From Microgenomates group bacterium (GTDB lineage: Bacteria; Patescibacteriota; Microgenomatia; Daviesbacterales; UBA10151): DNA of 64,000 nt. Both the position numbers and the translations under genes were made by a program. Location: contig JBAZXP010000001.1 of the NCBI GenBank assembly GCA_041659805.1, positions 64,589 through 128,588 on the forward strand. Direction: 5' to 3'. Positions 1-59,483 of the stretch are shown piece by piece. Under the pieces are notes generated by a model that saw nothing but the letters and a program-made list of their open reading frames with translations, was not told where the DNA came from and made no database searches. The first letter of the stretch is position 1. Each line of letters begins with the position of its first letter.

Positions 1-499
1 AATTCTACCGTCAGGGTCAAAGACCGGCTGTTGATTTAACCCTTTCCGTTTCCCGTGTGGGCCAACAAACCAGGACGAAACTAGCTAATCTGGTCGCTAC
101 CAGGGTTAAACAGGTACTTGCCAGGGCTGCCCAACTGGAATCAGTCAGCAGGTTTGCCTTTGAACTACCTTTTGCCACTCAATTAATCCTAAAACAAAAA
201 GACATGTTTACAGAGTTAAAAAACCAGGCTCCTTTAACAAATGTTACCCCTGAGGTTCAATTGATTTTAATGGCTTTGCCTTTTACCAATATGATGCAGG
301 ATAAAGATAAGATTTTTGTCAGACGTTATAAGGACTTGATCGTCAAAGCATTTATTGAGGATTCCGAACTTTCTGTTTTTGCCCAGAGCATTCTTAAATT
401 ACAAACCGATGATGAGCTGATTGATGCTCTTAATAACAACCCAGTTATGAAAAAGCTGGATCAGATTATTGCCGGTAAACCGATTACGCCAAAAGCCAT

Positions 500-503
<4 letters not shown>
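1..503 (+). CDS. atpA: F1 ATP synthase alpha subunit, C-terminal part; the gene starts upstream of the window
   Basis: Frame 3 is open from base 3. Translation FYRQGQRPAVDLTLSVSRVGQQT matches the conserved alpha-subunit 'RPAI(N/D)VGLSVSRVG' motif and C-terminal helical domain. It is followed by the gamma, beta and epsilon genes. Confidence 0.8.
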
Positions 504-2738
<2,235 letters not shown>

Positions 2739-2740
2739 AC

Positions 2741-3067
2741 ATGGCAACACCACCTCCTATCCCTCAATCAGCACTAGCCCCAAAACCAAAACCGCAACAG
2801 GAATTCTTAACCGTTAAGGTTCTTTCTCCGAAAATAGAATATTTTAACGGTCCTGCTGTATCGGTTTCGTCAGTTAATTCTGCAGGTCCTTTTGATATCT
2901 TACCGGAACACGGAAACTTTATTACCTTGGTGAAAAATATCCCCATTATTATCCGGCTGCCAAATAAACAAGAACGGAAGTTTACCTTTCCATTAGCGGT
3001 CTTTTATACAAAGAAAAATTTGGTCACTATTTTTACTGATATCCAGCTGGAAAGTCTTCCTGTTTAA
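2741..3067 (+). CDS. atpC: F1 ATP synthase epsilon subunit
   Basis: 108 aa, immediately after atpD. An N-terminal beta-sandwich-like sequence (LTVKVLSPKIEYFNGPAVSVS...DILPEHGNF) is typical of epsilon. Confidence 0.7.
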   Translation: MATPPPIPQSALAPKPKPQQEFLTVKVLSPKIEYFNGPAVSVSSVNSAGPFDILPEHGNFITLVKNIPIIIRLPNKQERKFTFPLAVFYTKKNLVTIFTDIQLESLPV

Positions 3068-3279: not shown

Positions 3280-6200
3280 ATGAAAGACTTGCCCAATAAA
3301 CAAACAAAAAAATTCGTTAAAATCGGTGAAGCTTCAGTTAAACTCGGCGTCTCAATTGATACTCTCCGCAGATGGGAAAAGGCAGGTAAAATAGAGATAA
3401 CCAGAACACCAGGTGGTACCAGACTTTACTCAATTTCCACTATTTCAAAACTAACTGAAATACCTAAAAAATATCAAAGAAAAACTGTCGACTATCCAAG
3501 AGTTCCTGTTATTGAACCGGCAAAAATAAAGGTTACGACTGTTGAGGATCTTTTAAACTTAAGCCGACAGGAAACAGAAAAACATCGCCAGACACCGTCA
3601 ACTGATCAAAAATGGCAGGAGTATGTAGATGAAAGAACAGTTAATCCGGTTGAAGTAACTATTTTATCTGAATCAGAGCTACCACAGGCTGTGGCTGAAA
3701 ATCATTCATCAAAAGCCATCAAAACATCATTCCTAGGAAACAAAATTTACAAGTTAACAGCCACAGCTTTTACAGGAACATTAATCATGATAATTCTAGC
3801 TTTTTTAGTTTTAGCCAGAACTTCAAACTTTAATATCTTTAATACAGCTAAAAACAATCAACTCTCAACTGCAAGCCAATCATCATCTACCCTACCTTCT
3901 AATGTTTTGGCTACCTCTACCAGCGGCTGGTATCTGGATTTTGATTCAGATGTAATCATCGAAGGTGACTTGGCTGTTGGTGGAAGCATTAATAAACTAA
4001 CGCTCGCTCCTAATGCAGATGGCTTTAGCATTTCAGGTGGTGATACTGCCAACCGGAAAATGACTGTTATCGGCGGAGATGTAACCTTAGACCAGGATGT
4101 TTCAACAAACGGCTCTCCCAGTTTCCAGGCCTTAGATCTTCCGGCAACATCTAAGCAAATCACTATGGGTGGAGCAGGAACTTTAACATGGACACCCACA
4201 GGCACTCAAACAATTACTTTTCCAAACGCAACAGGCACAGTCCTGCTTGATTCAGCTACTCAAACTATAACAAACAAGACTATTTCCGGTGGGTCTAATA
4301 CTCTTTCTGCTATCCCCAATTCAGCTTTATCCAACAATAAAATTACAATCTCTGCAGGAACTAACCTTTCAGGCGGTGGTGATATTTCTTTAGGCAGTTC
4401 AGGAACTCTTTCTTTAGAGGATGATATTTCCCTGTCCACAGTAACTGCAACATCCTATCTATCTCTAGGTCAAACTAGTGCACCTTCAACCGCAACCGAT
4501 AAACTTTATAATATAGCAGGCTCACTTTACTGGAATGGAACGGATCTTTCTGCTTCTGGTGGCAGCGTTCCTTCAGTTAATGGCTTAATCGGAGCCTTAA
4601 CAATTGCAGGTGGTGGAATTAATTCTGTTTCAGCCCTCGGAACCACTATTACTATAACTGGTACAGAAGCAGATACTTTGGCCAGCGTGACTGCCAGAGG
4701 GGCTACCACAACTGATGCAGTTACATTCTCCTCCACTATTAACTCCAATACTTTTACTTCCACTGCTTTAACCTTTGCAGGTGCTTCCCCTGCCATCTCT
4801 GCTTCCACCGGCGGAACAAGTATTTTTCTTGACGCCGGAACAAGTGGTAAAGTAGTAATCGCCGGAACATCTACAGGGGACGTTGATATTGCCGGCGGAT
4901 CTGGAACCACTGGTTGTACTATTGTTAATGCCACCGGAGATTTGAGCTGTTCCGGAAACATCAGTGGTGGTTCTACAGGAACTGCTGGTTTCTGGGGTAG
5001 GGCTGGTACTACTTTATCTCCAGCAACGGCGGGAGACAACATTACTACAACTGGAGCAATTTCCACAACCGGCACTGGCACTTTATCAATTGCTGGTGCA
5101 GCAACTTTTTCTTCCACTATCAACAGCAATACTTTTACATCCACTGCCCTAACTTTTGCCGGTACCACTCCTATCGTTTCTGCTTCAACTGCAGCTACTG
5201 ATATTTCCTTAAATCCAGGAGCTGGTGGAAATGTACAACTTGCTGGAGGATCTGCTTCATTTGGATGTACAATAAATGACACCACAGGTGATTTAACTTG
5301 TACAGGAGCGATTGCCAGCGGAGGAACAGGAGTGGTTGGATACTGGCAAACAGATGGCGGGTCTCCGCCGACGCTCTCCCCGGCCACGACCGGAGGACAT
5401 ATTACCACTTCAGGTAATATGTATACCTCTGGCACAGGCACAATCACTTCAGGAGGATTACTTACCGGTCAGACCGGTTTAACCGTTTCTGGAGGTGCTA
5501 TTTCTTTAAATGCTTCTTCAAATTATGACACTAATATTAATACTGGTACTTCTACTGGAGCAATTTCTATTGGTAATTCTGCAGCTGGCGCAATATCAAT
5601 GCAATCAGGCGCAGCTTCAACTTTTGCTGCCCCAGCCAATACTGCCACAGCTTTTAGGTTTACTGATGGCACAAATGCATATCTTAACCTTGATACAAGG
5701 AATACTTTATCTGGAGTTTCAGCTTTAACGCTTTCTGCAGGAACCGCCCCAACAATTACATCTGCTTCTAATGCTGAATTTACCACTTTAACCACCACTC
5801 CCCCAACTATCACCTTAACTGGCACTACTCAAGTAACCTCCCAAATGGATTCCATTTTATTTAATGCCCCAACCATCACTGACTCTTCTGCCTTAACAGT
5901 TGATAAAGCTGCATCTGTATCTATTGCAGGCGCACCTGTCTCAGGAGCAACAGGATTAGTCACTCTCACTGACTCCTATGCGCTCAAGGTAAATACAGCT
6001 TCTGTTGATGGTGGAACAGGCACTGTTACAAATTCCTTTGGTATTTCTGTTGACGCACCAACCGGAGCTACTAATAATTATGCTGCCACTTTTAATGGAG
6101 GAAACGTGGGAATTGGAACTACTGCACCTACTGCCCTTCTTTCTGTAGGGGCAACTTCCCAATTCCAGGTTAATTCATCCGGAGCCATAGCTGCCTCAAC

Positions 6201-9200
6201 TGGAATTTCAAACTCTGGAGGTTACACCCAATCCGGAACAACTGCCAATACCTTCACAGGAACTTCTACTTTTTCCAATGCCACTTATTCAGCTTTCTTT
6301 ACAGGAGGTAATGTGGGAATTGGCACTACAGCTCCTATTGGAAGATTGGATGTAACTGATACTTCTAACACAGCTGCTTCCCTATCCTTAACCAATAATA
6401 CAGCTACCACTATTGGAAACGGTGCTAATACTCTGGGGGTAATCGATCTACAATCAACCTCCTTAACTACTGGTAACTTTTTAAATGTAGAACTCAATGC
6501 CTTATCTTCTGGTAAAGGTTTCAACCTAACTTCAACCTCTACCGCTCTTTCATCCGGCTCGCTTGCCTCTTTAGATTGGAGTCCAACAGGTTCTACCACA
6601 ATTTATGCAACAGGCGATCTTTTTAGTATCAATGCTGGCCAATATGGATCTGTTGGTAACTTTTTTAATATCAAAGATAACGGCACATCTGTTTTCTCTA
6701 TTTCCCAACAGGCTTTAACAACTAGCTTGCCAGCTGCTTTTAATGCTCCTGGTGATGTATCCATTGCCTATGATATTAATTTTACTAACCCCACAGCTTC
6801 CTACCTTAAATCTCAAGCCCCACTTTATATAACACCAGGAGAAATTTTTAATTCTTCTGATTTGGTCTTATCTACCTATAATCAAGGCAGCATCATTTTA
6901 AGCAAAGATTTTACATCAACAGCTGCTGTTACTAATTATTTATCCCAAATCAATGGTTCTGATGTAACAGCCATTGCTAATACCAATTATGGTCTGTATT
7001 CTTCAATCACCCACACAGGCAATGCTGCCAAAACTGGTGTTGGATTATATTCCACCCTTTCCACATCCTCAACCACAGCAGATACTTTAATAGCTTCTGA
7101 TTTAGCCACATCCACCTCTGGAATCATGACTACTGGCACCAGAAATATCTATGGTTTGAGATCTCAGCCTGCTTCAACTGGTGCCTCAACTGGAGGAACT
7201 ACCAATGTTTATGGAGGATATCTTAAATCAGGCGGAACAGTCGGAGTGGGCGGAACTATTAATTCTTACGGAATGTATATTGCTAACGGCACCATGAGTA
7301 CTACAGGACTTTCCACCAACACAGGCCTTTATGTCGAATCGCCTACTGGGGCAGATAACAACTATGCAGCTATTTTTGCTGGTGGAAATGTGGGAATAGG
7401 CACAACTGCTCCTGCTGCCCTCTTTTCTGTAGGTTCAACCTCTCAATTTCAGGTTTCTTCTGCTGGAGCAGTTACTGCTGTAGGATTAAATTCAGGCTCA
7501 GGATTATTACAGGGTACTGGTGGTTTAACCCTAACAGGCACAACGCTTTTGAATACCACTGGTACTGCTGCTACCAGTATTGGTAATTCCACAGGAATAC
7601 TAACTTTAGCCTCAGGTGGAACGTCTGCTTGGACAAATACTTCTGGAAACTTAACTATCTCCACAGCTACATCTGGAATTTTAGCCTTAACTTCTGCAGG
7701 AGCTTTGAACCTAACTTCTGGAGCGGCTTCCACCTGGACTCTACCTGCTACTACAGTTAATGCTTTGAATATTGGATCTAATTTATTAACTTTTGATACA
7801 CAAAACTCCAGAATTGGGATTGGGACCACTGCTCCAGGAGCCAATCTAGATGTAGCTGGCAATATTATGCTTTCAGATGGAAATAATGATGCAATTACAT
7901 TCAATAATAGTTATGTACAAATTTATAGGAATGCCAGTATGATGCAATTTAATGCTTATACAGGCTGGGCTTTTTATGATACCCAAGGCTCAGCTGAGAG
8001 AGTCAGAATAACTAATGCAGGTGATGTGGGTATCGGGATAACAGCACCTATAGAGGTATCTGCTGGCAGAACATATCTTTCAATAAAAGGATCTACTGGA
8101 GCTGGAGCTCTGGAATTGTCTACTGCTCAAGCTGATGCAGATGCTGTAACTAATGGAGTTATTCAATTTACTGATGTTAACTCAACAGCAACAGATAAGC
8201 GTACTGCAATAATCCAGTCTTATTTATCAGGAGCAACTGGAAATAATCGCGGAGGCAGATTAGTTTTCAAGACTAAACCTGATGGCGTAGATAGTTTACC
8301 TGACCGCCTTACGATAGAACAAAATGGGAATGTCGGAATTGGTACAACAGCCCCTGCTAGATCTTTGGAAACAACAGGATCAATCAGAATGGGACCATTG
8401 ATTACAGGTGGAGGCTCAGCTGTGGCTATGTACAGAGATGCCAATGGCGATTTGGCAGATTCAACCTCCAGTATTAAGTTTAAAACAGATCTTACAGCTT
8501 ACCCTTCTGTTTTAGAAAAAGTATTGCAACTTAATGCAGTTAACTTTAAATGGAACGAGCTTACTCCTACCCCAGGAGCAAATGATTTTGGAATGATTGC
8601 AGAACAGGTAAATACTATTATTCCTGATTTGGTAATTTATGATGCTGACGGTGTAACACCCCACGGATTAAAGTATGACAAAATGGGGTTTGTTGCCTTA
8701 AAAGCTATCCAGGAACTAAATACTAAAGTTAACAGTTTTAATCTGACATTTGATGAAAATGGCAATGTCATTCTACCTAAAGTTAAAATCGACCAATTAG
8801 TTCTTTCGTCTGATATTCCTGTAAACGGCCAACAACAAAATTATTTCGATGTGGCTGGTAAAATAGCCGAACAAAATGCGGCACTATCTACTCAATCTAC
8901 TGAACTTGCCAAAACACAGTCACAACTTGATGTATTATCTGCCTCTGTTTCTTCTGCTTCAGCCAATCTATCTTCTGCTTCTGCAGAAATTGCTTCAGCC
9001 AGAGAACAAATTTCCTCCACCTCAAGTAGTCTTGCTTCCTTAAGAGAGGAGATCGAAGGATTAAAGCTAACTCCTCCGGAAGTTTTGCTCTCAACAGTCT
9101 CTGCTCAATTAACTGATCTTAATGTCACATCTGAGGCTACCTTCTCAGGAAAACTAACAGCTTATGAAGCAACCATATCTGATACTTTTAAATCTCTGGG

Positions 9201-9627
9201 CAATTCATTCCTGGGTAACACCACTATAGCAGGTGACTTCTCTATTGACGGAACATTATCTCTAACAGGTAGTTCCTTAAGTACAATTGATACCTTATAT
9301 GTTCAAAATAAACCTCTGGCAGGAGATGTTGATTTCTTTAATGGACAAGTCATAATTGATAAAACGGGTAAATTAACTGCTCAAAAAATAGTCTTACCTT
9401 CTGAAGTATTAGGTGAAGCAACTATTCCTGCTAATACCGTAGAAATACCTATCTTCACTACAGCTGTAACAGGTAAATCAAAGATATTCTTAACACCAAG
9501 CTCCTCTACTGGTGGTCAGGCTGTTATCCTTGGAGAAGTCCTCCCTGGTACAGGATTTGTGGCTAAACTAGATCACAGTATAAGTGCAGACATTAAACTT
9601 AATTGGGTAATATTTGATCAACAATAA
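3280..9627 (+). CDS. giant (2115 aa) membrane-anchored surface fibre protein. Domains in order: N-terminal MerR/excisionase-type HTH, single TM helix, Ser/Thr/Gly-rich tail-fibre-like repeats (GNVGIGTTAP motif repeated about 6 times), C-terminal intramolecular chaperone (Peptidase S74) domain, coiled coil.
   Basis: N-terminus KIGEASVKLGVSIDTLRRWEKAGKI is a HTH_17/MerR-like DNA-binding motif. A hydrophobic helix TGTLIMIILAFLVLA lies about 160 aa in. The GGNVGIGTTAP..L.VG motif recurs. The C-terminus SIKFKTDLTAYPSVLEKVLQLNAVNFKW...GMIAEQV..IIPDLV matches the endosialidase-chaperone/S74 consensus. A Ser/Ala-rich coiled coil (LSSASAEIASAREQISS) follows. Confidence 0.75.
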   Translation: MKDLPNKQTKKFVKIGEASVKLGVSIDTLRRWEKAGKIEITRTPGGTRLYSISTISKLTEIPKKYQRKTVDYPRVPVIEPAKIKVTTVEDLLNLSRQETEKHRQTPSTDQKWQEYVDERTVNPVEVTILSESELPQAVAENHSSKAIKTSFLGNKIYKLTATAFTGTLIMIILAFLVLARTSNFNIFNTAKNNQLSTASQSSSTLPSNVLATSTSGWYLDFDSDVIIEGDLAVGGSINKLTLAPNADGFSISGGDTANRKMTVIGGDVTLDQDVSTNGSPSFQALDLPATSKQITMGGAGTLTWTPTGTQTITFPNATGTVLLDSATQTITNKTISGGSNTLSAIPNSALSNNKITISAGTNLSGGGDISLGSSGTLSLEDDISLSTVTATSYLSLGQTSAPSTATDKLYNIAGSLYWNGTDLSASGGSVPSVNGLIGALTIAGGGINSVSALGTTITITGTEADTLASVTARGATTTDAVTFSSTINSNTFTSTALTFAGASPAISASTGGTSIFLDAGTSGKVVIAGTSTGDVDIAGGSGTTGCTIVNATGDLSCSGNISGGSTGTAGFWGRAGTTLSPATAGDNITTTGAISTTGTGTLSIAGAATFSSTINSNTFTSTALTFAGTTPIVSASTAATDISLNPGAGGNVQLAGGSASFGCTINDTTGDLTCTGAIASGGTGVVGYWQTDGGSPPTLSPATTGGHITTSGNMYTSGTGTITSGGLLTGQTGLTVSGGAISLNASSNYDTNINTGTSTGAISIGNSAAGAISMQSGAASTFAAPANTATAFRFTDGTNAYLNLDTRNTLSGVSALTLSAGTAPTITSASNAEFTTLTTTPPTITLTGTTQVTSQMDSILFNAPTITDSSALTVDKAASVSIAGAPVSGATGLVTLTDSYALKVNTASVDGGTGTVTNSFGISVDAPTGATNNYAATFNGGNVGIGTTAPTALLSVGATSQFQVNSSGAIAASTGISNSGGYTQSGTTANTFTGTSTFSNATYSAFFTGGNVGIGTTAPIGRLDVTDTSNTAASLSLTNNTATTIGNGANTLGVIDLQSTSLTTGNFLNVELNALSSGKGFNLTSTSTALSSGSLASLDWSPTGSTTIYATGDLFSINAGQYGSVGNFFNIKDNGTSVFSISQQALTTSLPAAFNAPGDVSIAYDINFTNPTASYLKSQAPLYITPGEIFNSSDLVLSTYNQGSIILSKDFTSTAAVTNYLSQINGSDVTAIANTNYGLYSSITHTGNAAKTGVGLYSTLSTSSTTADTLIASDLATSTSGIMTTGTRNIYGLRSQPASTGASTGGTTNVYGGYLKSGGTVGVGGTINSYGMYIANGTMSTTGLSTNTGLYVESPTGADNNYAAIFAGGNVGIGTTAPAALFSVGSTSQFQVSSAGAVTAVGLNSGSGLLQGTGGLTLTGTTLLNTTGTAATSIGNSTGILTLASGGTSAWTNTSGNLTISTATSGILALTSAGALNLTSGAASTWTLPATTVNALNIGSNLLTFDTQNSRIGIGTTAPGANLDVAGNIMLSDGNNDAITFNNSYVQIYRNASMMQFNAYTGWAFYDTQGSAERVRITNAGDVGIGITAPIEVSAGRTYLSIKGSTGAGALELSTAQADADAVTNGVIQFTDVNSTATDKRTAIIQSYLSGATGNNRGGRLVFKTKPDGVDSLPDRLTIEQNGNVGIGTTAPARSLETTGSIRMGPLITGGGSAVAMYRDANGDLADSTSSIKFKTDLTAYPSVLEKVLQLNAVNFKWNELTPTPGANDFGMIAEQVNTIIPDLVIYDADGVTPHGLKYDKMGFVALKAIQELNTKVNSFNLTFDENGNVILPKVKIDQLVLSSDIPVNGQQQNYFDVAGKIAEQNAALSTQSTELAKTQSQLDVLSASVSSASANLSSASAEIASAREQISSTSSSLASLREEIEGLKLTPPEVLLSTVSAQLTDLNVTSEATFSGKLTAYEATISDTFKSLGNSFLGNTTIAGDFSIDGTLSLTGSSLSTIDTLYVQNKPLAGDVDFFNGQVIIDKTGKLTAQKIVLPSEVLGEATIPANTVEIPIFTTAVTGKSKIFLTPSSSTGGQAVILGEVLPGTGFVAKLDHSISADIKLNWVIFDQQ

Positions 9628-10041: not shown

Positions 10042-13000
10042 TTGAAAATTATGAGTAAATTAAACAAAAATTTTAGAATAAAGAAAAAACTCTTTTTTAC
10101 TATTTTAGCCCTTTGTATAGGGATAATTGCCTTCTGGAAATTTAGTAATCCTGCTGTTGCTTCCTGGTGGGATGATAATTGGGCTTTTAGAAAATCCATT
10201 GCTATTACTGCCCATACTGCCTCTGAGAATAATGTATATATTAATTTAACAGGGGCAAACGATTTAGATACCTCTGATACCACCAGATTTCAAACTGATT
10301 GTGGAGATTTAAGATTTACCAAGGAGAATGGAGAATTACTCCCCTATTATGTTGTTTCAGGCTGTGGCACAGCTTCTACTGTAGTCCATGTTAATTTTGA
10401 TACTTTCCCAGCAGGAGCACAAACAATCTATGTTTATTATGGTAACTCCTCTGCTGCTGATGGTTTTAATTTAACTGATTTTTCTACAGAAGCTTCCAAC
10501 TACACTATTGGTTCCCAGGGCTCTGAAGAAAAAACACCTGGGATTATTGCTTATTGGCAATTTGATGAAGGACAAGGTATTTCTGTTAAGGACTCCTCTC
10601 CTAATTCTGCTAATGCCACGCTTGCCGCAGGAGACGGAACTGCACCTACAGGTACGACTAATCCTACTTATAATAGTTCTACAGGCGCTCCTGATACGGG
10701 AGATGGGGCTGACGGAGCTTGTACTGTTTCCTCTGATACCAATATCAACACAGCTTCTTGTGCTGGCAGAGGCACAGCTGATGCTATTAATTTTTCTTCT
10801 ACTGTTGATACCAGTGCAGCTTCTACCTCTATCAAACTCTCTGCAACATCCACAGGTTTAGCTGTCGGCGATGAGATATTAATTATTAACTTAAAAGGAA
10901 CTGCAGCAGTTCCTTCAGATGCAGGAGAATTTGAAACTAAAACTATTACTTCAATTACTACTACCACTAATCCGGATGACACTTTAAACTTTGCCAGTGG
11001 TTTAACAAATGCTTATGCAGGCACCACCCAAAAAATTATGGTTCAGAGGGTTCCAAATTATACAACTGTCACAGTCAATAGTGGCCAAACTATGACTGCA
11101 GCTGCCTTTGATGGGACAAAAAACGGGGTAATCTTTTTTAGGGCAACCGGAGCAGTAACTGTCACAGGTTCTATCAGTATGAGCGGTAAGGGCTTTACTG
11201 GTGGAGCAGCTCAAACTGCACATGTTAGTAAAGGTGGCAATGGCGGTACAACCTATAATGGCACTGGTGGAAACGGTGGAAATGCAGCCGTGAATGGTAC
11301 GAGTGGTCAAGGAGGTGGTGGAGGTGCAGGTGCTTTATGCCAGGCATCCGATAAAAACGGCTGTTACCAATGGGCTACCGGAGGAACTGGTACAACTGGA
11401 GGCGCAGGAGGTGGTGGTGGAGGCCATTATTCTGCTGCAGGGGGTGGAGGTGGATATGGAACAATCGGCACTGGAGGAGGCAGTTATGATGGAAATTATA
11501 ACGGCTCCCCAGGATCAGGCACTACTGGTGGTAATGGTGCCAGCTCTAATAGTAATAATATCGCTGGTGGTGGAGGTGGAGGTGGTACTTATGGAACTGC
11601 TACTTTAAGTACCTTATTTATGGGAAGTGGAGGCGCTAGCGGTGCAACTTATAGTCAAGCTGGCGATAGTGGCGCAGGAGGAGCTGGAGGCGGAATTATC
11701 TCAATTAACGGTGCAACTATAACAATAACAGGGAGTGTTGTCAGTAATGGTGCTGCTGGAGGTAATGGGGTTAATGATAATGCTTCCGGTGGTGGTGGCG
11801 CCGGTGGTTCAGTTGCTATTAATGGTTTGACAATTGCCTTAGGCTCATCTCTAGTGACAGCTACAGGAGGTGGAGGTGGGACTGTCTGGACTACAGGAGG
11901 AGCTGGAGGAGATGGACGAATAGCAGTTGGCTCTGGCGGTAATAGTCCTACCTGGAAATCAGAGGAATGGTGTATTTCGGGCAAGTGTCTATTTTTTGAT
12001 GGTACATCCTCAAATATTAAAGTTGCAAATGCTATAAATGGAATCCAAACAATCTCTATGTGGGTTAAACCCACTTCCCTCACCACTGGCGCCTTAATTG
12101 ATCTTGACGGCGGTACACATAAAATAACCTTTTCCAATGGAACTCTTTCTACCTCTGGCTTTACCGGTACTACAACCTTTTATGTTAATGGTAAAGTCTC
12201 CTCCACTTTAACCATTGATACCTGGCAATATGTTACAGTAACCACAACGAATGGTTTCAACAGCACTTCCTCTCTAACAATTGCTAAATCAAGCTCAACT
12301 TATTTACAGGGTTTTATTGATGATGTCAAAATATATAACTATGCCAAGACTGCAGCTCAAATTGCTACTGACTTACAAAAAGTTCAATCAAATATGGGTT
12401 CTGGCGAAGTTTTGGGTAACAAGCTAATTGATCCTCTATCTACAGGTTTGCTTGGTTATTGGAAAATGGATGAACTATCAGGCACAACCACAGTTTCAGA
12501 TTCTTACAGAAGCCACACAGGAACCTCTACTTCCAGCACCAATGTCACAACAGGCAAATTTGGCAATGCCAGAAGCTTTAATGGCAGCCAATATATTTCT
12601 GTTACTCACAACTCCAGTTTAAGCCCGTCTGCTATCACCATCTCTGCCTGGGTTTATACCACTTCCCAACCAGGAGTCGGCACCTCATATCAGTTTGTGG
12701 AAAAAAGCGCAAATGACAGTTACCGTTACAGGGTTAATGCCGGAGGAACTATTGGTGTATTTGATCAGGGCTGTGGTATTAGCTGTCTATCTTCACCCGG
12801 TAATATTCCATTAAATCAATGGAATCATGTAGTCTATACAGGTGACTCAACGGGCTTAAAAATGTATCTGAACGGTTCTTTGGTTGCCAGTAATTCTACA
12901 GCTTATAGTGGTGGGGCTGCCAACACCAATAATTTATTAATTGGGGGCTCTTATTTTGGCACTGCTGAGTATATGATTGGGAACATTGATGAGGTCAGGC

Positions 13001-15891
13001 TTTATAACAGATCTCTTTCTGCCACAGAAGTAACAGCCCTTTATAACTGGACACCACAGGCAAATGAAGCCCCAGGACCAGTGGGAGCCTGGGATTTTGA
13101 GGAAGCTACCGGAACAACACTTATTGATAACTCAACCAATGGTTATAACGGAACATGGTCAGGCACAGCCAGCCACTACACAACAGGAAAATATGGCAAG
13201 GCAGGTAATTTTAATAGCGCCACGGTCGACTATGTCGATATGGGTGATGTTTTAGATGCAAACACAACAAACAAAATTACTCTTGAGGCTTGGATAAAAA
13301 CGCCCTCTCCAACAGATAATTTTCCAATGATTGTTACAAAATCTGGGGCTTCTGATAACGGATACGAATTCCGTTTTAATTCTACAAACGGAAAACTCCA
13401 GGTTATATATGGAGGAACTACACCAACTAATTTAGTTGGTAATACCGTCTTAGCTGCAAATACTTGGTATCATGTTACAACTACCTATGATGGAGTAACT
13501 GCTAAAATTTATCTTAACGGTGTTTTAGATAATTCAGTGGCTATGACTGGAACTATTACTGCCAATACTGAACATTTACTTATCGGAGCTCGATATGAAA
13601 GCGGTACTCCAGCATATTTTTATACAGGTCAAATTGATGCTGTCAGAATTTATGATTATGCCAGGTCCGCTAGCCAGATTGTTTCTGATATGAATGCAGG
13701 GCATCCTGCTGTTGGCTCCCCTATTGGATCTGCTGTGGGATATTGGAAATTTGATGAAGGGGCAGATAATAGATGCTCTGCTGGAGTAAATGATGCTTGT
13801 AATTCAGGTTCAGGAGGCAATGCTTTAGATGGAGCAGAATCTAACATGGCTGTTCCTGCAACAACTGCATCAGGCTGGACTAATTCAGGTAAATTCAATA
13901 AAGCAATGATTTTTGATGGATCAGATGATCAAATCCAAATTACTGAAACAGCTCCCCTTCGATTTACAACCTCTACTCCTTATTCTTTCTCCTCTTGGGT
14001 CAAACTGGATTCTATCCCTGCTGCAAATGGCTATGAAATTATTGGTAATCGTGCTTGTGCGGTCAGGACTGCCATTTTTGTAAATACTGCCGGTAAAATT
14101 GACTTTAATATCGATGCCACATCCGGAGGAAGTACTGACCCTCTTTCTACAACAGTGCTAACAACAGGTGCCTGGTATCATATTGTCGGTACTTATGACG
14201 GGACAACAGCAAAAGTTTATGTTAATGGAAAACAGGAAGGGTCTCAAGCTATACAGGGCTCAGGAAATATTTATGCAGGTAACCCTTATTTTATTGGCGG
14301 CAGTACTTATACTTGTGGAACGTCCCAAAACTGGCATCTTGATGGCACTATTGATGAGGTTAAAATTTATAATTATGCCTTAACTGCTGATGAGGTTAAG
14401 GCAGATTTTAACAGAGGTCAAAGTCTACAGTTAGGTGGTGGTGGGAATAATTCCACTTATCAACCACAAGCTGCTAATCAGGAATATTGTGTACCTGGGG
14501 ATACCACCTCCTGTGCTGCTCCTGTGGGAGAATGGAAAATGGAAGAAGGCACAGGTCAAACTACTGCTGACACATCTAGTAATGGAAATACCGGAACTTT
14601 TGGAGTTAACTCTGGAGTTAGCACTGATGATCCCATCTGGGCCAAAGGTAAAATTGGCAAAGCTACAAGTTTTGACGGAAGCAATGATTATATTAGTGTC
14701 GCTCATAGTTCTAACCTGACGCCAACAGGAGATTATACATTACAAGCCTGGATCAAAACTTCCTCTACAAACAACCATCAACCAGTTATAGCAAAATTCA
14801 ACGCAACTAATCCTTATCCAGGATATATCTTATCAATTGGTGATTATGCCTCAGCTACTGGCAAAGTGTCACTTTGGGTTGGTGATTGGGCTAGCAGCTA
14901 TTTTAATGGTAATACCTCTGTAAATGATGGCAACTGGCACCATATCGTAGGGGTTTTAAATGGTACAGCAGTCAGAATCTATGTTGATGGAAAACTTGAT
15001 AATAGCGGGACCAGAAGCCCTTCAAGGGCTAATACCCAGGGTTTAACTATTGGCACCAGATATGATAATGGTGGTGTCCTTCCCTGGTTTTTTAACGGTT
15101 CAATAGATCAGGTTCGTGTTTATAATTATGCCAGAACAGCTGCTCAGATAGCCTGGGATTATAATAAAGGCAAGCCTATTGGACATTGGAAACTTGATGA
15201 ATGCCAAGGAAATCAGGCATATGATTCCTCAGGAAATTCTAATACTGGAACCATTACCATTGGAGCTTCTGGAGAAAACACTTTAGGCACCTGCTCTATC
15301 TCTTCCACTGCCTGGGGAGACGGGGCAACAGGCAAAAGAAATGCTTCTTTAAAATTTGACGGAACAGATGATATTTTAAGCGTTGCTTCAATGCCACTGG
15401 CCTGGACTTCTACCACCCCCTTTTCTTATGGAGGCTGGATGAAATTTGCCAATACCACCACAGGTTACATACTCTCATCAAGTGTTTCTCCTGGAGCAGG
15501 AAACCTCTTAACAGACATCAACAAAGATGCATATACTTCAGGTAGGGTAACTTTTGAGGTAGGTAAATCAGGAACAGGTTTTACCCATATAGAGTCTTCA
15601 ATCCCTTATGTCACAGGCTCTTGGGAACACTATTTTGTTACCTATAACGGTGCTAATAATATGAAATTATACCGTAACGGAATTCAAGTTTCCTCTGGCA
15701 CGTATACAAACGGCTCCGCAGCTAGTAACGGTAACGGCTTTTATATGATGTATGCCAATAATTCTACAAACTATGTAAATGGCCAACTGGATGATGTTAA
15801 AGTATTTAATTATGCCCTCACAGCTACCCAGGTCAAGGATATCTACAATGGTGGAGCCATTTTCTACGGCCCAACCACAGGCAGCCCTTAA
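10042..15891 (+). CDS. giant (1949 aa) secreted/anchored protein. Domains in order: signal-anchor, DUF2341-like N-terminal domain (WWDDNWAFRK..I.I), Gly-rich region, six tandem LamG_3 (concanavalin A-like lectin) domains.
   Basis: N-terminal hydrophobic segment. The WW..W.(F/Y)RK..I motif is characteristic of DUF2341. Long GGxGG tracts. Six repeats end in the LamG_3 signature (IDEVRLYNRSLSATEV, IDAVRIYDYARSASQI, IDEVKIYNYALTADEV, IDQVRVYNYARTAAQI, LDDVKVFNYALTATQV, IDDVKIYNYAKTAAQI), each preceded by FDG.DD.I.V and W.H(V/I)..TYDG blocks. A TTG start at 10042 or an ATG at 10051 are both possible. Confidence 0.75.
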   Translation: MKIMSKLNKNFRIKKKLFFTILALCIGIIAFWKFSNPAVASWWDDNWAFRKSIAITAHTASENNVYINLTGANDLDTSDTTRFQTDCGDLRFTKENGELLPYYVVSGCGTASTVVHVNFDTFPAGAQTIYVYYGNSSAADGFNLTDFSTEASNYTIGSQGSEEKTPGIIAYWQFDEGQGISVKDSSPNSANATLAAGDGTAPTGTTNPTYNSSTGAPDTGDGADGACTVSSDTNINTASCAGRGTADAINFSSTVDTSAASTSIKLSATSTGLAVGDEILIINLKGTAAVPSDAGEFETKTITSITTTTNPDDTLNFASGLTNAYAGTTQKIMVQRVPNYTTVTVNSGQTMTAAAFDGTKNGVIFFRATGAVTVTGSISMSGKGFTGGAAQTAHVSKGGNGGTTYNGTGGNGGNAAVNGTSGQGGGGGAGALCQASDKNGCYQWATGGTGTTGGAGGGGGGHYSAAGGGGGYGTIGTGGGSYDGNYNGSPGSGTTGGNGASSNSNNIAGGGGGGGTYGTATLSTLFMGSGGASGATYSQAGDSGAGGAGGGIISINGATITITGSVVSNGAAGGNGVNDNASGGGGAGGSVAINGLTIALGSSLVTATGGGGGTVWTTGGAGGDGRIAVGSGGNSPTWKSEEWCISGKCLFFDGTSSNIKVANAINGIQTISMWVKPTSLTTGALIDLDGGTHKITFSNGTLSTSGFTGTTTFYVNGKVSSTLTIDTWQYVTVTTTNGFNSTSSLTIAKSSSTYLQGFIDDVKIYNYAKTAAQIATDLQKVQSNMGSGEVLGNKLIDPLSTGLLGYWKMDELSGTTTVSDSYRSHTGTSTSSTNVTTGKFGNARSFNGSQYISVTHNSSLSPSAITISAWVYTTSQPGVGTSYQFVEKSANDSYRYRVNAGGTIGVFDQGCGISCLSSPGNIPLNQWNHVVYTGDSTGLKMYLNGSLVASNSTAYSGGAANTNNLLIGGSYFGTAEYMIGNIDEVRLYNRSLSATEVTALYNWTPQANEAPGPVGAWDFEEATGTTLIDNSTNGYNGTWSGTASHYTTGKYGKAGNFNSATVDYVDMGDVLDANTTNKITLEAWIKTPSPTDNFPMIVTKSGASDNGYEFRFNSTNGKLQVIYGGTTPTNLVGNTVLAANTWYHVTTTYDGVTAKIYLNGVLDNSVAMTGTITANTEHLLIGARYESGTPAYFYTGQIDAVRIYDYARSASQIVSDMNAGHPAVGSPIGSAVGYWKFDEGADNRCSAGVNDACNSGSGGNALDGAESNMAVPATTASGWTNSGKFNKAMIFDGSDDQIQITETAPLRFTTSTPYSFSSWVKLDSIPAANGYEIIGNRACAVRTAIFVNTAGKIDFNIDATSGGSTDPLSTTVLTTGAWYHIVGTYDGTTAKVYVNGKQEGSQAIQGSGNIYAGNPYFIGGSTYTCGTSQNWHLDGTIDEVKIYNYALTADEVKADFNRGQSLQLGGGGNNSTYQPQAANQEYCVPGDTTSCAAPVGEWKMEEGTGQTTADTSSNGNTGTFGVNSGVSTDDPIWAKGKIGKATSFDGSNDYISVAHSSNLTPTGDYTLQAWIKTSSTNNHQPVIAKFNATNPYPGYILSIGDYASATGKVSLWVGDWASSYFNGNTSVNDGNWHHIVGVLNGTAVRIYVDGKLDNSGTRSPSRANTQGLTIGTRYDNGGVLPWFFNGSIDQVRVYNYARTAAQIAWDYNKGKPIGHWKLDECQGNQAYDSSGNSNTGTITIGASGENTLGTCSISSTAWGDGATGKRNASLKFDGTDDILSVASMPLAWTSTTPFSYGGWMKFANTTTGYILSSSVSPGAGNLLTDINKDAYTSGRVTFEVGKSGTGFTHIESSIPYVTGSWEHYFVTYNGANNMKLYRNGIQVSSGTYTNGSAASNGNGFYMMYANNSTNYVNGQLDDVKVFNYALTATQVKDIYNGGAIFYGPTTGSP

Positions 15892-15892
15892 T

Positions 15893-16558
15893 ATGAATAA
15901 AGACCAGGAAGAAGTTATTAAAGCAGCTATTGCCCAAACCATGAGGGAACTTACTGCTCCTAAAAAACCCTTACAAGGGTCACGGGTTTGGAAAGACCCT
16001 GAAGGTTATCAATACTTGGCTGTCTGGCAAAATGCTGCCCTCTTAAGGGTTCTTATCCGTAAATTTACCCTTAATCTTACCCTTAACCACCCTTTTGAAA
16101 AACGCTTAAAAGCCCAGCTGGATGATGCAGCCAGATCTCAAAAAAGAAACATCGAAGAAGGCTGGAAAAGACCAACCACCTCTGAATATCTAAATTTCTT
16201 AGGCTTTGCCCAGGGCTCTTTGGAAGAAGTTAAGGGTGATGTTAGGGACGCCAAAACAGATGGGTTTTTAAGGGTAAAAGAAGGGTCGTGTTTAAAAGAT
16301 TTAGGGATAGACTTAACTATCTATAAGGGAGCTGCTAAGGGAATGGCCAAGGGTGAGCCCACAGATCCAGGTCACCCTTACTACCAACCCTTATCTACCC
16401 TTAATCCCAAAACCCTTACCTATGAGATGTTTATGGAGCTAATAAATAAAACAGATTATTTACTAAGATCTCTGGTTCAGTCTTTGGAAAAGAAACTAAG
16501 AGAAGATCAAAAAGGCTACAAAATAGAACAGGAAAGAATCAAAGAAAAATTTAAATAA
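15893..16558 (+). CDS. four-helix-bundle protein of the 23S rRNA intervening-sequence protein family
   Basis: NIEEGWKRPTTSEYLNFLGFAQGSLEEVKGDVRDAKTDGFL matches the conserved NIAEG..R.s..e...FL.iA.GSl.E core of IVS proteins. ATG at 15893 lies just after the upstream stop. The ORF-track start at 15779 overlaps the giant gene and is unlikely. Confidence 0.55.
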   Translation: MNKDQEEVIKAAIAQTMRELTAPKKPLQGSRVWKDPEGYQYLAVWQNAALLRVLIRKFTLNLTLNHPFEKRLKAQLDDAARSQKRNIEEGWKRPTTSEYLNFLGFAQGSLEEVKGDVRDAKTDGFLRVKEGSCLKDLGIDLTIYKGAAKGMAKGEPTDPGHPYYQPLSTLNPKTLTYEMFMELINKTDYLLRSLVQSLEKKLREDQKGYKIEQERIKEKFK

Positions 16559-25668: not shown

Positions 25669-26847
25669 TCAAGGCACACAACCATTGCCATTATTATATA
25701 AAGCAGCTATTTCAGAAGGAGAAAGAGCTCTATTATAAACCCTCACATCTTCAATAGGACCATTAAAATATGTAGTTCCACCTATTTTAAAAGTACCTGT
25801 TGAATGGGTCCCAATACCAGTAGTCCAATTACCATATCCTGGCGTGGTAGCATCCACTCCATTTTTATAAATTTTCATTTGATTTGAGCCATTATAAGTT
25901 GCCACTAAATGAACCCACTCATTTATGTTTAGAGTACCATTACCCCTTGCTTCACCAACACCATTATTATAAATATGAAAAGAGTAGCCTCCAGTAACTG
26001 TTGCAGTACTCCAAATATGAATAGCGTAGCCTCCCCGATCGGTTCCACTAACATATCTTTCTTTGTGCAAAGACCGTGTATAACCATTAACTGGCGGGAG
26101 ACCGAGAGGTTTCATCCAAATAGAAATACTAATAGGGTTTAACCCTTCGATATTTAAACTGGGAACAGTCGTTGTTGATTGTACAACCTTACTGATTCCA
26201 TCAAAATCACCCATTCTTCCAAAACCAGCTTTTTCACTGACTAGGGTGTTTGCAGCACCATATGCTCTTAAATTATTACCCTGACCAGAAGAATCAATAA
26301 CATCATTGCTAGTCCCATTCCAAGAAGCCTCATCTAATTTCCAATATCCCACCAACCCTGAAGTTAATATTCCATAAGGATCACAGGAAGGATTAGATCC
26401 ACCATATCCACCACCACTACCTCCTCCACCTCCCTCAGATAAAGAAGAGCCTTGGGTAGAAGAAGAACAAAAACAAGTGCTGGAGTTTGAGTAACAAGGA
26501 GCACTCTGGTTATCCCCCAGGGAAGCACAGTAAGCTACTCTGTCTGTTGCTTGAGTAATACAACTTGTTTCTGGTCCTACCAAACAAGGGTAATTATTTC
26601 CTTCTGGGGTTTTGGGGATTTTCCCTGCAGCAAAATCTGTAGTAGCTAAAGCTGAATAAGATCCAGCAGAAGAATATTTAACTTCATAAGCTTTAGAGAT
26701 AGCATTTAAGTCTGCTTTTCTTTGAGCATCTCTGGCAGAAGTAGTTACATTTCTAAAAACAGTCACCCCTACCACTGCTAAAATAGCAATAATAGCCACA
26801 ACAACTAGAAATTCTACCAGAGTGAAGCCTTTAATTTTTCCCTTCAT
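25669..26847 (-). CDS. type IV pilin-like protein (prepilin N-terminal methylation motif) with Cys-rich middle region and C-terminal LamG_3 lectin domain
   Basis: N-terminus MKGKIKGFTLVEFLVVVAIIAILA is a class III signal / prepilin cleavage motif (G|FTLVE). C-terminus GYWKLDE...FDG...W.HLVATYNGSNQMKIYKNGVD...IEDVRVYNRALSPSEIAALYN matches the LamG_3 signature. Confidence 0.7.
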   Translation of the reverse strand: MKGKIKGFTLVEFLVVVAIIAILAVVGVTVFRNVTTSARDAQRKADLNAISKAYEVKYSSAGSYSALATTDFAAGKIPKTPEGNNYPCLVGPETSCITQATDRVAYCASLGDNQSAPCYSNSSTCFCSSSTQGSSLSEGGGGGSGGGYGGSNPSCDPYGILTSGLVGYWKLDEASWNGTSNDVIDSSGQGNNLRAYGAANTLVSEKAGFGRMGDFDGISKVVQSTTTVPSLNIEGLNPISISIWMKPLGLPPVNGYTRSLHKERYVSGTDRGGYAIHIWSTATVTGGYSFHIYNNGVGEARGNGTLNINEWVHLVATYNGSNQMKIYKNGVDATTPGYGNWTTGIGTHSTGTFKIGGTTYFNGPIEDVRVYNRALSPSEIAALYNNGNGCVP

Positions 26848-27624: not shown

Positions 27625-27631
27625 ATGATAT

Positions 27632-27748
27632 TCCGGCAATGACATATTGTCCCGGGGCCTTTCGACCCTAGTATCGTCGGCGCTGCAATCTTTGACTGCT
27701 GAGTTCGGGATGGGATCAGGTCGTTCGGTTGCGCTCAAATCACCGGAC
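27632..27748 (-). rRNA. rrf: 5S ribosomal RNA
   Basis: Reverse complement reads TCCGGTGATTTGAGCGCAACCGAACGACCTGATCCCATCCCGAACTCAGCAGTCAAAG...AGCGCCGACGATACTAGGGTCGAAAGGCCCCGGGACAATATGTCATTGCCGGA. Conserved CCCATCCCGAACTCAG and AGCGCCGA.G.TACT blocks with helix I pairing. Confidence 0.8.
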
Positions 27749-31496: not shown

Positions 31497-31530
<34 letters not shown>

Positions 31531-57965: not shown

Positions 57966-59483
57966 ATGCAAAAATTTCTGTCTAAATTAACACATAAAAC
58001 AATAATCCTAATGTTAGCCTTGATTATTGTAGGACTTGCTACTCCTGTAATTAACAAACAATTTAATATTGGTCCCAAATTAAGCAGGATGGGTGGTGAA
58101 GTTGCTGGAGTATTGATAGAAAATACCACTGAAAAGTTTTTGGGTACTGCCAACATAGTTGGAGCTGTAGGTACAGCCCCCTATCAAACAATAGGAGGTG
58201 AAGTTTCTATTGCAGGTGCGATACGTATGGATACCGGTGGATATATAATCGGAGAACCAACTTATGGAGTCAGACTTAATAACTCTTTAAACACATTAAA
58301 TTTAATCGTTGCTAAAAATGACGGAACTGTTTATATGCCCAGCGGTAAGGTTGGTATAGGGATAACTAGTCCAGGGTATCAACTTGATGTCAAAGGGGCT
58401 AATGATACAGAACTCATCTCTTGGAAAAATGCTGGTGGATACCTATTGGGCACTCTAGGCAGGGCAACAAATGGAGCATACAATTCAGGAGGATTACAAA
58501 TAAAATCAGATGGCACAACAACACAGGTTTATTTAACCGGTAGCGGGAACTCTTATATAAATCAAGGTAAATTTGGTATTGGAACAGCAACACCTACAGA
58601 CAAACTGAATATTAATCAGAATTGGTTTGATAACAGCACAACTGATTGGGGAGGTGGTATTAAAATGGAAGGAAACAATCCTACTATTGGTTTTTGGGAA
58701 ACAGATAATGGTGCCCATCGATGGATGTGGCATCTTTCTAGTGACATTATGAACCTTTATAGAAGACCTGTCGGAGGCGGATGGGAAAGGAAATTATATG
58801 TAGAGAATAATGGGAATGTTACTGCTACAAGTTTTACTGGTAATTTAAATGGTAATGCCACTTATGCTACCACAGCTGGTAGTGCTCCTGCTTCTGACGT
58901 ACCCTCACAATCAAAAAATTTGAATCAATGGGTAAACACTGATTCTGCGCCTACTTTTGCTTATCTAAATGGAACTTCAATTCTTACGGAACCATATTGG
59001 TTCCATCATCAAGGCGATGCAAATTTAGTTATAAGAAATAGGTATGATGGTTTTGTCATGTGGGCTGCGTCTTACACCGGCACTGCCTGGAAATCAGATA
59101 TCAGACTAAAGGAAAATATCAAACCGCTTGGTGACTCTCTGGATAAATTAAATCAACTCCAATCTGTTAGTTTTGACTGGAAAGAACATAAACCTGCTCC
59201 CTATCATGATAATGCTCCTTTAGGTTTTATTGCTCAGGAGTTAGAAAAAATATATCCGGAATTAGTTTATGAAGATAGTCTAACAGGTATGAAAATGATT
59301 GATTATGGTGGCTTAACCGCACCAATAATCAAATCTATCCAGGAACTGGATAATAAAATTTCGTATCTTTGGAATATGATAACCTCTGCTTCTGAAAGAA
59401 TAGATGCTCTGACCAAACAAGTCAACAGCCAACAAAACGAAATTAATGCCCTGAAAGCTGAAATAGAAAATTTAAAGAAATAA
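57966..59483 (+). CDS. tail-fibre-like protein with C-terminal intramolecular chaperone (Peptidase S74) domain and coiled coil
   Basis: 505 aa. N-terminal anchor. G.(V/F)GIGT..P..(L/K)(D/N)(V/I) motifs. C-terminus SDIRLKENIKPLGDSLDKLNQLQSVSFDWKEH...GFIAQELEKIYPELVYED...MIDYGGLTAPIIKSIQELDNKI matches the S74 consensus. Coiled-coil tail. Confidence 0.7.
   Translation: MQKFLSKLTHKTIILMLALIIVGLATPVINKQFNIGPKLSRMGGEVAGVLIENTTEKFLGTANIVGAVGTAPYQTIGGEVSIAGAIRMDTGGYIIGEPTYGVRLNNSLNTLNLIVAKNDGTVYMPSGKVGIGITSPGYQLDVKGANDTELISWKNAGGYLLGTLGRATNGAYNSGGLQIKSDGTTTQVYLTGSGNSYINQGKFGIGTATPTDKLNINQNWFDNSTTDWGGGIKMEGNNPTIGFWETDNGAHRWMWHLSSDIMNLYRRPVGGGWERKLYVENNGNVTATSFTGNLNGNATYATTAGSAPASDVPSQSKNLNQWVNTDSAPTFAYLNGTSILTEPYWFHHQGDANLVIRNRYDGFVMWAASYTGTAWKSDIRLKENIKPLGDSLDKLNQLQSVSFDWKEHKPAPYHDNAPLGFIAQELEKIYPELVYEDSLTGMKMIDYGGLTAPIIKSIQELDNKISYLWNMITSASERIDALTKQVNSQQNEINALKAEIENLKK

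Follow-up and report, generated by a model that had tools for sequence, protein, structure and literature searches.

Why does a bacterial chromosome of the Candidate Phyla Radiation (CPR) encode the chaperone module of phage tail fibres twice, and what kind of proteins carry it? The question arises from a 64-kb stretch of DNA from an ultra-small Microgenomates group bacterium (contig JBAZXP010000001.1, positions 64,589 to 128,588; hereafter the window), in which an earlier note, made from the letters alone, had recognised endosialidase-type S74 domains in two fibre proteins. We refer to these as p1, a predicted giant membrane-anchored fibre protein of 2115 aa (3280..9627, +; defined by its open reading frame (ORF) and translation, Pfam and the public entry MFA5932492.1), and p2, a predicted exported, tail-fibre-like protein of 505 aa with a C-terminal S74 domain (57966..59483, +; defined by ORF, Pfam, PHROG and tblastn). 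With a probability of about 0.7, p1 and p2 are chromosomal, Sec-exported, homotrimeric and likely adhesive cell-surface fibres of a CPR bacterium. The trimerisation, cleavage, surface display and adhesive role of both proteins would be expected from the comparisons with characterised systems that are set out below.

The S74 domains themselves are real and far beyond chance. Searches against Pfam-A placed PF13884 (Peptidase_S74; gathering cut-off 22 bits) at aa 1730-1785 of p1 (nt 8467-8634, E 5.7e-08, 33.4 bits) and at aa 377-435 of p2 (nt 59094-59270, E 4.4e-18, 65.8 bits). When all six frames of the window were scanned with a purpose-built S74 hidden Markov model (HMM), exactly two sites were returned, one in p1 and one in p2 (E 1e-24 and 3e-37). 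In p1 the full chaperone/auto-processing domain is assigned to 8467..8739 (+, aa 1730-1820) on the basis of PF13884, the catalytic dyad, an AlphaFold2 (AF2) model and Foldseek, and the S74 core of p2 to 59094..59270 (+, aa 377-435) from PF13884, phmmer and Foldseek.

Both domains possess the Ser-x4-Lys dyad of this family. It reads SSIKFK in p1 (S1730/K1735; codons 8467-8469 and 8482-8484, +) and SDIRLK in p2 (S377/K382; codons 59094-59096 and 59109-59111, +). The two catalytic residues occupy invariant columns in each of three alignments, comprising 10 sequences (A1), 25 relatives of p1 at 24-76% identity (A3) and 32 relatives of p2 at 25-33% identity (A4); in the last of these D378 is invariant alongside S377 and K382. 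The spacing of the dyad equals that of endoNF (S911/K916) and MyRF (S587/K592), and in MyRF mutation of either residue abolishes cleavage, which takes place immediately N-terminal to the serine (PMC8326128). The predicted cleavage sites would thus lie just before S1730 in p1 and before S377 in p2. The earlier note had named a significant S74 profile match and a catalytic Ser-Lys pair as the features that would distinguish a true module, and both were found in both proteins. The peptides it quoted are present where it had placed them, and the interval that it marked in p1 (8455-9100, equivalent to aa 1726-1941) spans the S74 core and the coiled coil that follows.

Structure prediction points in the same direction. 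An AF2 monomer model of p1 aa 1681-2115 reached a predicted local distance difference test score (pLDDT) of ~90 or higher over aa ~1731-1810 and ~86 by aa 1820. Foldseek matched this model to MyRF's ICA (intramolecular chaperone auto-processing) domain (7dc3, E 7e-4, probability 1.00), to GA-1 gp12 (3gud) and to endoNF (3gw6), and a search of the predicted viral structures of BFVD returned 239 matches at E ≤ 0.001, the top ranks of which were mostly ICA/S74-domain and tail-fibre proteins. The monomer model of p2 was confident only over aa ~375-505; it also matched 7dc3 (E 2e-4, probability 1.00, target-normalised template modelling score 0.65) and 3gud, and phmmer with the p2 S74 domain against the Protein Data Bank (PDB) retrieved the phage fibres 8jov and 6f45. 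As modelled, both modules have the fold of an intramolecular chaperone domain (ICD), in which a long helix comes after a small beta core.

A coiled coil trails each S74 core, as the earlier note had proposed. That of p1 (8851..9021, +, aa 1858-1914) consists of Ser/Ala/Gln-rich heptads modelled by AF2 as a helix, with a pLDDT of about 87-93 over aa ~1861-1910 and lower values at both ends; its heptad a/d positions, read from the sequence, form the unbroken series L,L,V,A,L,A,I,A,I,T,L,L,I,L. In p2 the C-terminal ICD heptads (59304..59477, +, aa 447-504) are modelled as a helix with a pLDDT of ~95, and the corresponding series, I,L,I,A,I,L,V,Q,I,L,I,L, is likewise unbroken.

Do p1 and p2 belong to a virus or to the cell? 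The window is a stretch of a Microgenomates/Daviesbacteria-type CPR chromosome. ATP synthase, rRNA, glycolysis and envelope genes all lie within its 64 kb: atpA (part)-atpG-atpD-atpC occupy 57-3067, upstream of p1; GAPDH, PGK, ribosomal protein S1 and UppS are encoded, along with many proteins of the envelope, of glycosylation and of the LamG type; and the rRNA genes (a 23S containing a group I intron, a 16S and a 5S) are unlinked and accompanied by three tRNAs. The window AtpD clusters at ≥90% identity with AtpD of Candidatus Daviesbacteria STC_54. The two fibre genes have as neighbours ATP synthase, genes for LamG giants and for sugar modification, and UppS.

The alternative that p1 and p2 are tail-fibre genes of a phage, a tailocin or an extracellular contractile injection system (eCIS), left behind or carried as cargo by a mobile element, draws on real resemblance. 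Residues ~170-505 of p2 match PHROG tail-fibre families (best E 1.4e-26), tblastn with p2 retrieved 440 phage records, relatives are labelled 'tail fiber domain-containing protein' by NCBI, and eCIS fibres also contain S74 domains, according to PMC8213781 and PMC12923769. Yet the identity of p2 to these phage proteins is just 22-31%, and Pfam and PHROGs scans of ~50 ORFs across the 64 kb detected no capsid, portal, terminase, tail tube, sheath, baseplate or integrase families. No eCIS or tailocin genes were found in the window either, and a PHROGs search with the uncharacterised neighbours of p2 gave no match. A scan of IMG/VR with the p1-family profile yielded nothing beyond matches to the S74 core, which had 37% identity. 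The C-terminal module of p1 was present in none of them, an absence that is weak evidence because the scan relies on two exact peptide patterns. Both proteins have N-terminal hydrophobic segments, which argue against virion fibres, since these need none; nor is the helix-turn-helix (HTH) and transmembrane (TM) architecture of p1, described below, a virion feature. Finally, the gene order beside ATP synthase and the LamG giants is kept in a related genome. We therefore consider a mobile-element origin very improbable, and rejected a prophage or eCIS origin on the scans of ORFs across the whole window. The absence of phage genes, the housekeeping neighbours, the N-terminal hydrophobic segments and the relatives in other CPR genomes instead support the cellular appropriation of a tail-fibre module. 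This was the interpretation of the earlier note, which had pointed to the ATP synthase genes upstream of p1 and the lack of flanking phage structural genes; context, topology, CPR relatives and conserved gene order uphold it.

The N-terminal regions of the two proteins indicate how they might be held at the cell. p2 has a single hydrophobic segment (57987..58055, +, aa 8-30) by Kyte-Doolittle analysis, modelled by AF2 as a helix over aa 2-23. In p1 the order of parts is HTH, TM helix, T/S/G/A-rich fibre, S74, coiled coil and beta domain. Its HTH, of the MerR/excisionase type and predicted to be cytoplasmic (3319..3462, +, aa 14-61), scored above threshold with both PF00376 (43.5 bits, cut-off 28.2) and PF13411 (29.8 bits). 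NCBIfam gave matches of the IS607/BldC/HspR type that were all below cut-off and covered the HTH only, and neither Pfam nor NCBIfam revealed a MerR dimerisation helix or effector-binding region in p1. The sole predicted TM helix (3754..3822, +, aa 159-181, LTATAFTGTLIMIILAFLVLART) follows after a linker of ~95 aa and has a Lys-rich flank on its N-terminal side; it is the only segment exceeding 1.8 in a Kyte-Doolittle scan of the 2115 residues, and homologues of p1 have a hydrophobic segment at the aligned position. A folded HTH that is not preceded by a signal peptide places the HTH in the cytoplasm and the remaining ~1930 aa outside. The earlier note had seen the S74 domain of p1 and overlooked this N-terminal HTH and TM helix.

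This head defines a large CPR family. Over the HTH, the TM helix and the first ~150 extracellular residues, p1 can be aligned with 18 homologues, which belong to Daviesbacteria and other Microgenomates; nearly all of them are recorded as 'partial' and end at contig ends. Across 19 sequences the motif KIGxAxxxLGVSIDTLRRWExxGKIxxxRTPGGTRLY is largely invariant and its remainder strongly conserved. A HMMER search of 1.84 billion representatives with an HTH-TM head profile gave 119 cluster representatives at E ≤ 1e-30, and among the best 150 matches there were 51 proteins of 1000-6844 aa, the match being N-terminal in the great majority. These full-length architectures come from the exhaustive search of representatives; the matches of a word-indexed protein search extended to ~880 aa at most and did not include p1 itself. 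In some relatives two HTHs stand in tandem. The sequence of p1 is public, on a 1.13-Mb contig and with the same start (MFA5932492.1/MFA6454170.1), under the name 'MerR family DNA-binding transcriptional regulator [Microgenomates group bacterium]', and two Daviesbacteria members that we checked are deposited as 'MerR family transcriptional regulator'. These names are misleading: in p1 the part they describe amounts to about 2% of the protein.

A conserved DNA-binding fold on a surface protein nevertheless invites the alternative that p1 is primarily a membrane-tethered regulator, its giant fibre acting as a sensor of contact or load that controls the cytoplasmic HTH. The oligomeric state or processing of the fibre would then determine how the HTH acts, through DNA or through a cytoplasmic partner. 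ToxR/CadC and RodZ are the membrane-tethered systems with which such a protein would be compared. The score and conservation of the HTH fit this proposal, as do its position at the head of at least 119 cluster representatives, which implies strong purifying selection on the cytoplasmic domain of a surface protein, the tandem HTHs of some relatives, and the fact that MYRF is built from the same three types of part (PMC3742440, PMC8326128). On the other hand, the S74 domain lies across the membrane from the HTH, so that cleavage could not release the HTH as it does in MYRF. The missing MerR dimerisation/effector domain also counts against a regulator, no target operator or regulated gene is evident for the p1 HTH, and most members of the HTH-TM family do not contain an S74 domain, meaning that signalling would not depend on it. 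We judge a primarily regulatory p1 to be improbable, more so than the uncleaved form discussed below.

It is equally improbable that the p1 family as a whole constitutes a hitherto undescribed class of one-polypeptide CPR contact sensors, laid out as MerR-type HTH, TM helix, giant fibre, optional S74 domain and tip. In such proteins host binding, load, or S74 trimerisation or cleavage would be signalled through the TM helix to the HTH, which would switch its binding of DNA or of a partner and so couple attachment to gene expression. If true, the family would be a bacterial counterpart of eukaryotic MYRF with the parts re-ordered.

Returning to p1 and p2 as surface fibres, the region between the TM helix and the S74 domain of p1 (3823..8466, +, aa 182-1729) is assigned as an extracellular fibre body from its composition, motifs, DNA repeats and matches to the mosaic adhesive trimer (MAT) fibres of Bdellovibrio bacteriovorus. 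It is rich in T (15%), S (12%), G (11%) and A (10%), and contains five copies of G(N/D)VGIG(T/I)TAP, at aa 941, 1010, 1369, 1581 and 1683; two related motifs occur in p2. Protein self-BLAST detected no internal repeats in p1 and a DNA repeat search only the short GNVGIGTTAP-encoding motif, in three copies, indicating that simple tandem repetition does not account for the fibre body. Residues 1581-1704 match the MAT fibres Bd2133 (8ond, E 4e-5) and Bd1334 (8oml, E 3e-4).

Where the S74 domain sits differs between the two proteins. The earlier note had placed both at the C-terminus, which is accurate for p2, where 129 aa run from S377 to the end, and not for p1, where the domain is internal and 386 aa remain from S1730. 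From that residue on, the p1 chain runs through the ICD, up to aa ~1820, and a short beta segment into the coiled coil, after which come a beta-rich segment and a beta-sandwich. The last two (9085..9624, +, aa 1936-2115, ending '...NWVIFDQQ') were modelled by AF2 with a pLDDT of ~70 for the beta-rich segment (aa ~1942-1990) and ~95 for the beta-sandwich (aa ~2041-2115). The beta-sandwich gave weak Foldseek matches (E 0.01-0.07) to the R2 pyocin fibre (6ct8/6cl6), the Pam1 tailspike (7eea), the Klebsiella K1 lyase (7w1c) and a trimeric lectin, the Helix pomatia agglutinin, and the C-terminus scored below threshold with PF24146 K1-lyase_C (19.1 bits, cut-off 27). The modelled beta-sandwich thus weakly resembles the C-terminal or receptor-binding domains of tailspikes and pyocin fibres.

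Among the 51 giant HTH-TM relatives this C-terminal domain was present in 36 and an S74 domain in 10, which identifies S74 as an optional module inserted between a variable stalk and a conserved tail of coiled coil and beta domain. All ten S74-bearing giants have the S-x4-K dyad, with the serine 300-450 aa from the C-terminal end. Because the C-terminal module of p1 also occurs in relatives that have no S74, the notion of a disposable C-terminal maturation module suits p2 better than p1. In the C-terminal ~460 aa of three S74-less relatives (P0241, P0267 and P0278), the position of the p1 S74 domain is taken by a conserved segment, '...GRVPLKVS.ENGPI..GDYLTSSSTPG.AMKA...', just upstream of a shared 'D..GNL.IPKL.V..L' strand and the coiled coil. 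This segment had no Pfam match and could represent a distinct module for folding or processing. The suggestion that it is a chaperone of the Peptidase_G2 type was dropped, since Pfam gave no support for it.

Several observations weigh against reading p1 and p2 as self-processing trimeric fibres. The S74 score of p1 is modest (33 bits); PHROGs applied to full-length p1 reported HTH families only and no S74, and a single-sequence phmmer search of the PDB with the p1 C-terminus yielded nothing useful; for this region it took the family profile to reach MAT, MyRF and phage structures. We discount the silence of PHROGs because Pfam, the purpose-built HMM and the fold search agree. In p2 the predicted N-terminal segment could be either a signal peptide or a signal-anchor, making its attachment to the cell ambiguous, and the fibre bodies were modelled with low confidence: the AF2 monomer of p2 is mostly below a pLDDT of 50 over aa 22-372, aa 30-160 being among the low-confidence parts. 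A further difficulty concerns p1, whose S74 domain is followed by a 180-aa domain that is better conserved and is found in S74-less relatives. Were this domain the functional tip, its removal by cleavage would be paradoxical, and the p1 S74 domain might stay uncleaved or remain attached non-covalently.

Taken to its conclusion, this difficulty turns the p1 S74 domain into a permanent trimerisation clamp, either uncleaved or cleaved but still bound, with the C-terminal part as the distal adhesive tip. A beta domain retained in 36 of the 51 giants, mostly S74-less, looks like a conserved 'business end', and its resemblance to the pyocin fibre 6ct8, the tailspikes 7eea and 7w1c, a trimeric lectin and, below threshold, K1-lyase_C supports the idea of a tip; moreover, the MyRF ICA remains on the membrane-bound product after cleavage (PMC8326128). 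However, the S/K dyad is invariant in all p1-type sequences, including the ten giants with an interior serine, which argues for selection on catalysis and not on folding alone, and self-cleavage occurs in every characterised S74 domain (PMC8326128, PMC10769870). That S74-less relatives conserve the downstream domain argues for a role of its own, and the invariance of the dyad argues that catalysis is used. On balance a permanent clamp appears unlikely, and cleavage of p1 specifically is somewhat favoured, by only a little over even odds and by analogy with the characterised domains.

The preferred reading, of p1 and p2 as self-processing trimeric surface fibres, suggests the following sequence of events. 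The N-terminal hydrophobic segment would hold the chain at the membrane or export it through the membrane; in p1 it would be a true TM helix, leaving the MerR-type HTH in the cytoplasm. The C-terminal S74 domains and coiled coils, the last parts to emerge, would associate as three and set the register, and this trimer would nucleate the upstream beta-helical stalk bearing the GNVGIGTTxP loops. Once the correct trimer has formed, the Ser-Lys dyad would cut just before S377 in p2 and S1730 in p1. In p2 this would remove the 129-aa chaperone and expose the tip of the mature fibre; in p1 it would sever the 386-aa module of S74, coiled coil and beta-sandwich from the anchored stalk of 1729 aa, and the severed piece might be discarded, be retained as the tip or act independently. 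The mature fibre may then attach to some structure on the surface of another cell. In an epibiotic lifestyle it would likely serve to adhere to a host cell or to recognise its surface, as the analogy with other fibres of this kind suggests.

Relatives in other genomes are consistent with a cellular family. The C-terminal 475 aa of p1 have a 75%-identical orthologue in Daviesbacteria STC_54, and relatives at a greater distance were found in Roizmanbacteria, Moranbacteria, Staskawiczbacteria, WWE3 and further Patescibacteria. Directly downstream of p1 the window encodes a giant with DUF2341 and six Laminin_G_3 domains (10042-15891, +; counterpart region L001 1668-6777), followed by an ORF with a 23S_rRNA_IVP domain (15779-16558, +) whose Daviesbacteria counterpart also matches the bAvd family, an accessory of diversity-generating retroelements; no reverse transcriptase was seen in the window. 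The order of S74 fibre, DUF2341/LamG giant and bAvd-like ORF is the same in the window and in Daviesbacteria STC_54. Another Daviesbacteria member of the family adjoins genes for MreB, a glycosyltransferase, a sortase and ArgRS.

Most of the p1-family homologues found end prematurely at contig ends, and the 1.10-Mb Daviesbacteria contig JAQTZF010000001.1 begins inside the p1 orthologue (1-1671). C-terminal fragments of p1-type proteins are deposited as 'tail fiber domain-containing protein'. Genes of this length and repetitiveness seem to break assemblies, and are consequently under-represented and mis-named in databases, which is why correcting their annotation matters.

Several other features of the window stand out. 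Three genes co-directional with p2 (57537-57923, 59488-60384 and 60381-61301, +) encode exported proteins of 128, 298 and 306 aa, each with an N-terminal signal/TM segment and without a Pfam, PHROG or NCBIfam match; the run of four genes that they form with p2 recurs in a second public assembly, Logan SRR18595301. A pilin-like protein (25669-26847, -) combines an N-terminal methylation motif (PF07963) with Laminin_G_3 and is another candidate surface adhesin. Two paralogues of 538 and 547 aa (48097-49713 and 50769-52412, +) contain thrombospondin type-1 repeats (PF00090, 73.6 and 69.9 bits), a domain typical of animals and apicomplexans and unusual in a CPR bacterium. The region of rRNA genes, intron and LAGLIDADG endonucleases comprises 30629-34429 (-), 32117-32376 (-), 39869-40663 (+), 41486-41914 (-), 42234-43625 (-) and 27631-27747 (-). 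The 23S rRNA gene measures 3.8 kb with the group I intron inside it (Rfam, 58 bits), two LAGLIDADG ORFs lie between tRNAs and the 16S gene, and the 16S match extends over only 1392 nt of the window, against the 1533 positions of the model.

What do these proteins add to current knowledge? CPR bacteria, or Patescibacteria, are thought to live attached to other microbes, and to our knowledge little beyond type IV pili is understood of how they recognise and hold their hosts. p1 and p2 are concrete candidate adhesins for this attachment, tail-fibre-like and probably self-processing trimers. In the literature we found no paper on S74 domains or tail fibres in CPR/Patescibacteria, or on HTH-anchored giant proteins. 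The widespread fusion of a cytoplasmic HTH, through a TM helix, to giant surface fibres raises the question of whether the surface is coupled to the cytoplasm. Earlier work already covers the S74 domain, its dyad and the redeployment of the domain by a bacterium that attacks other cells; many Patescibacteria proteins are labelled 'tail fiber domain-containing protein' by NCBI; and the Bdellovibrio precedent (PMC10769870) makes the cellular appropriation less novel than the earlier note implied. New relative to the MAT fibres are the CPR lineage, the N-terminal TM/signal anchoring, and in p1 the cytoplasmic HTH and the internal S74 domain.

Four known systems invite comparison. With MerR regulators p1 shares an N-terminal HTH of ~40-50 aa that exceeds the PF00376 and PF13411 thresholds. 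The resemblance ends there: MerR regulators are soluble proteins of ~120-300 aa, whereas p1 has neither dimerisation helix nor effector domain, and its other ~2050 aa make up a TM helix together with an extracellular fibre of ~1930 residues.

With the phage fibres endoNF (3GW6), T5 pb1 (4UW8), GA-1 gp12 (3GUD) and S16 gp37 (6F45), p1 and p2 share the Pfam family, the Ser-x4-Lys dyad, the modelled fold and the trailing helix that in these fibres forms a trimeric coiled coil, and p2 reproduces the canonical terminal arrangement of ~130 aa. Unlike those fibres, p1 and p2 lie outside any virion gene cluster and have export or anchor segments, and the module of p1 is internal.

The ICA of MYRF (7dc3) is the best structural match of both modelled ICDs, and MYRF resembles p1 in that the same polypeptide contains a DNA-binding domain, one TM helix and an S74/ICA domain (PMC3742440, PMC8326128). 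The order of parts differs. In MYRF it is DNA-binding domain, ICA, TM, and cleavage frees a DNA-binding trimer from the membrane; in p1 it is HTH, TM, fibre, S74, with the S74 domain predicted to lie outside the cell. The DNA-binding domains are unrelated, being of the MerR type in p1 and of the Ndt80 type in MYRF.

The closest counterparts are the MATs, 21 surface fibres of the predator Bdellovibrio bacteriovorus (Caulton et al. 2024, PMC10769870). Searched against the PDB, the profile of the p1 family (A3) matched 8ond (5e-25), 8oml (6e-14) and 8ojn (1e-10), and that of the p2 family (A4) matched 8ond (6e-23), 8ojn (8e-11) and 8oml (1.5e-10); these structures, which ranked first or close to it, are Bd2133 (8ond), Bd3182 (8ojn) and Bd1334 (8oml). 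Also scoring were 8ol4 and 8on4, with the MyRF ICA, 8jov, 6f45 and GA-1 gp12 interleaved or lower. Searched singly, p1 matched 8ond and 8oml directly and p2 had no direct MAT match. Among the MAT fibres, 13 of the 21 end in an S74 domain with SDxxxK and the other 8 have different tips; Bd3182 self-cleaves at S782, as seen by SDS-PAGE, and an S782A substitution abolishes cleavage; and the beta-helix of the MATs has a recurring, conserved capping-loop motif (PMC10769870). The MATs differ in being ~1000 aa long and belonging to a Gram-negative predator, with a signal peptide, an invariant beta-rich N-domain of ~130 aa and a terminal S74 (PMC10769870). p1, by comparison, is a CPR protein of 2115 aa whose chain opens with a cytoplasmic HTH, then a TM helix, and continues for 386 aa from the catalytic serine onward. 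The profile matches suggest that p1 and p2 are homologous to the MATs in stalk and S74 domain; we do not claim formal membership. In both cases chromosomal, non-phage and exported fibres would serve a bacterium living on other bacteria. The two window families and the MATs alike would combine a beta-helical stalk, with recurring loops of the V-G-x-G-x-x-P-x-x-x-L type, and an S(D/S)xxxK S74 domain near the C-terminus, self-cleavage being experimentally established for Bd3182. The division into S74 and non-S74 fibres with swapped tips has its parallel in the p1 family, where 10 of 51 giants have the S74 domain and 36 of 51 the C-terminal domain. The principle embodied by the MATs, that parts of phage fibres are reused by bacteria that attack other cells, would thereby extend to a second, unrelated host-dependent lineage.

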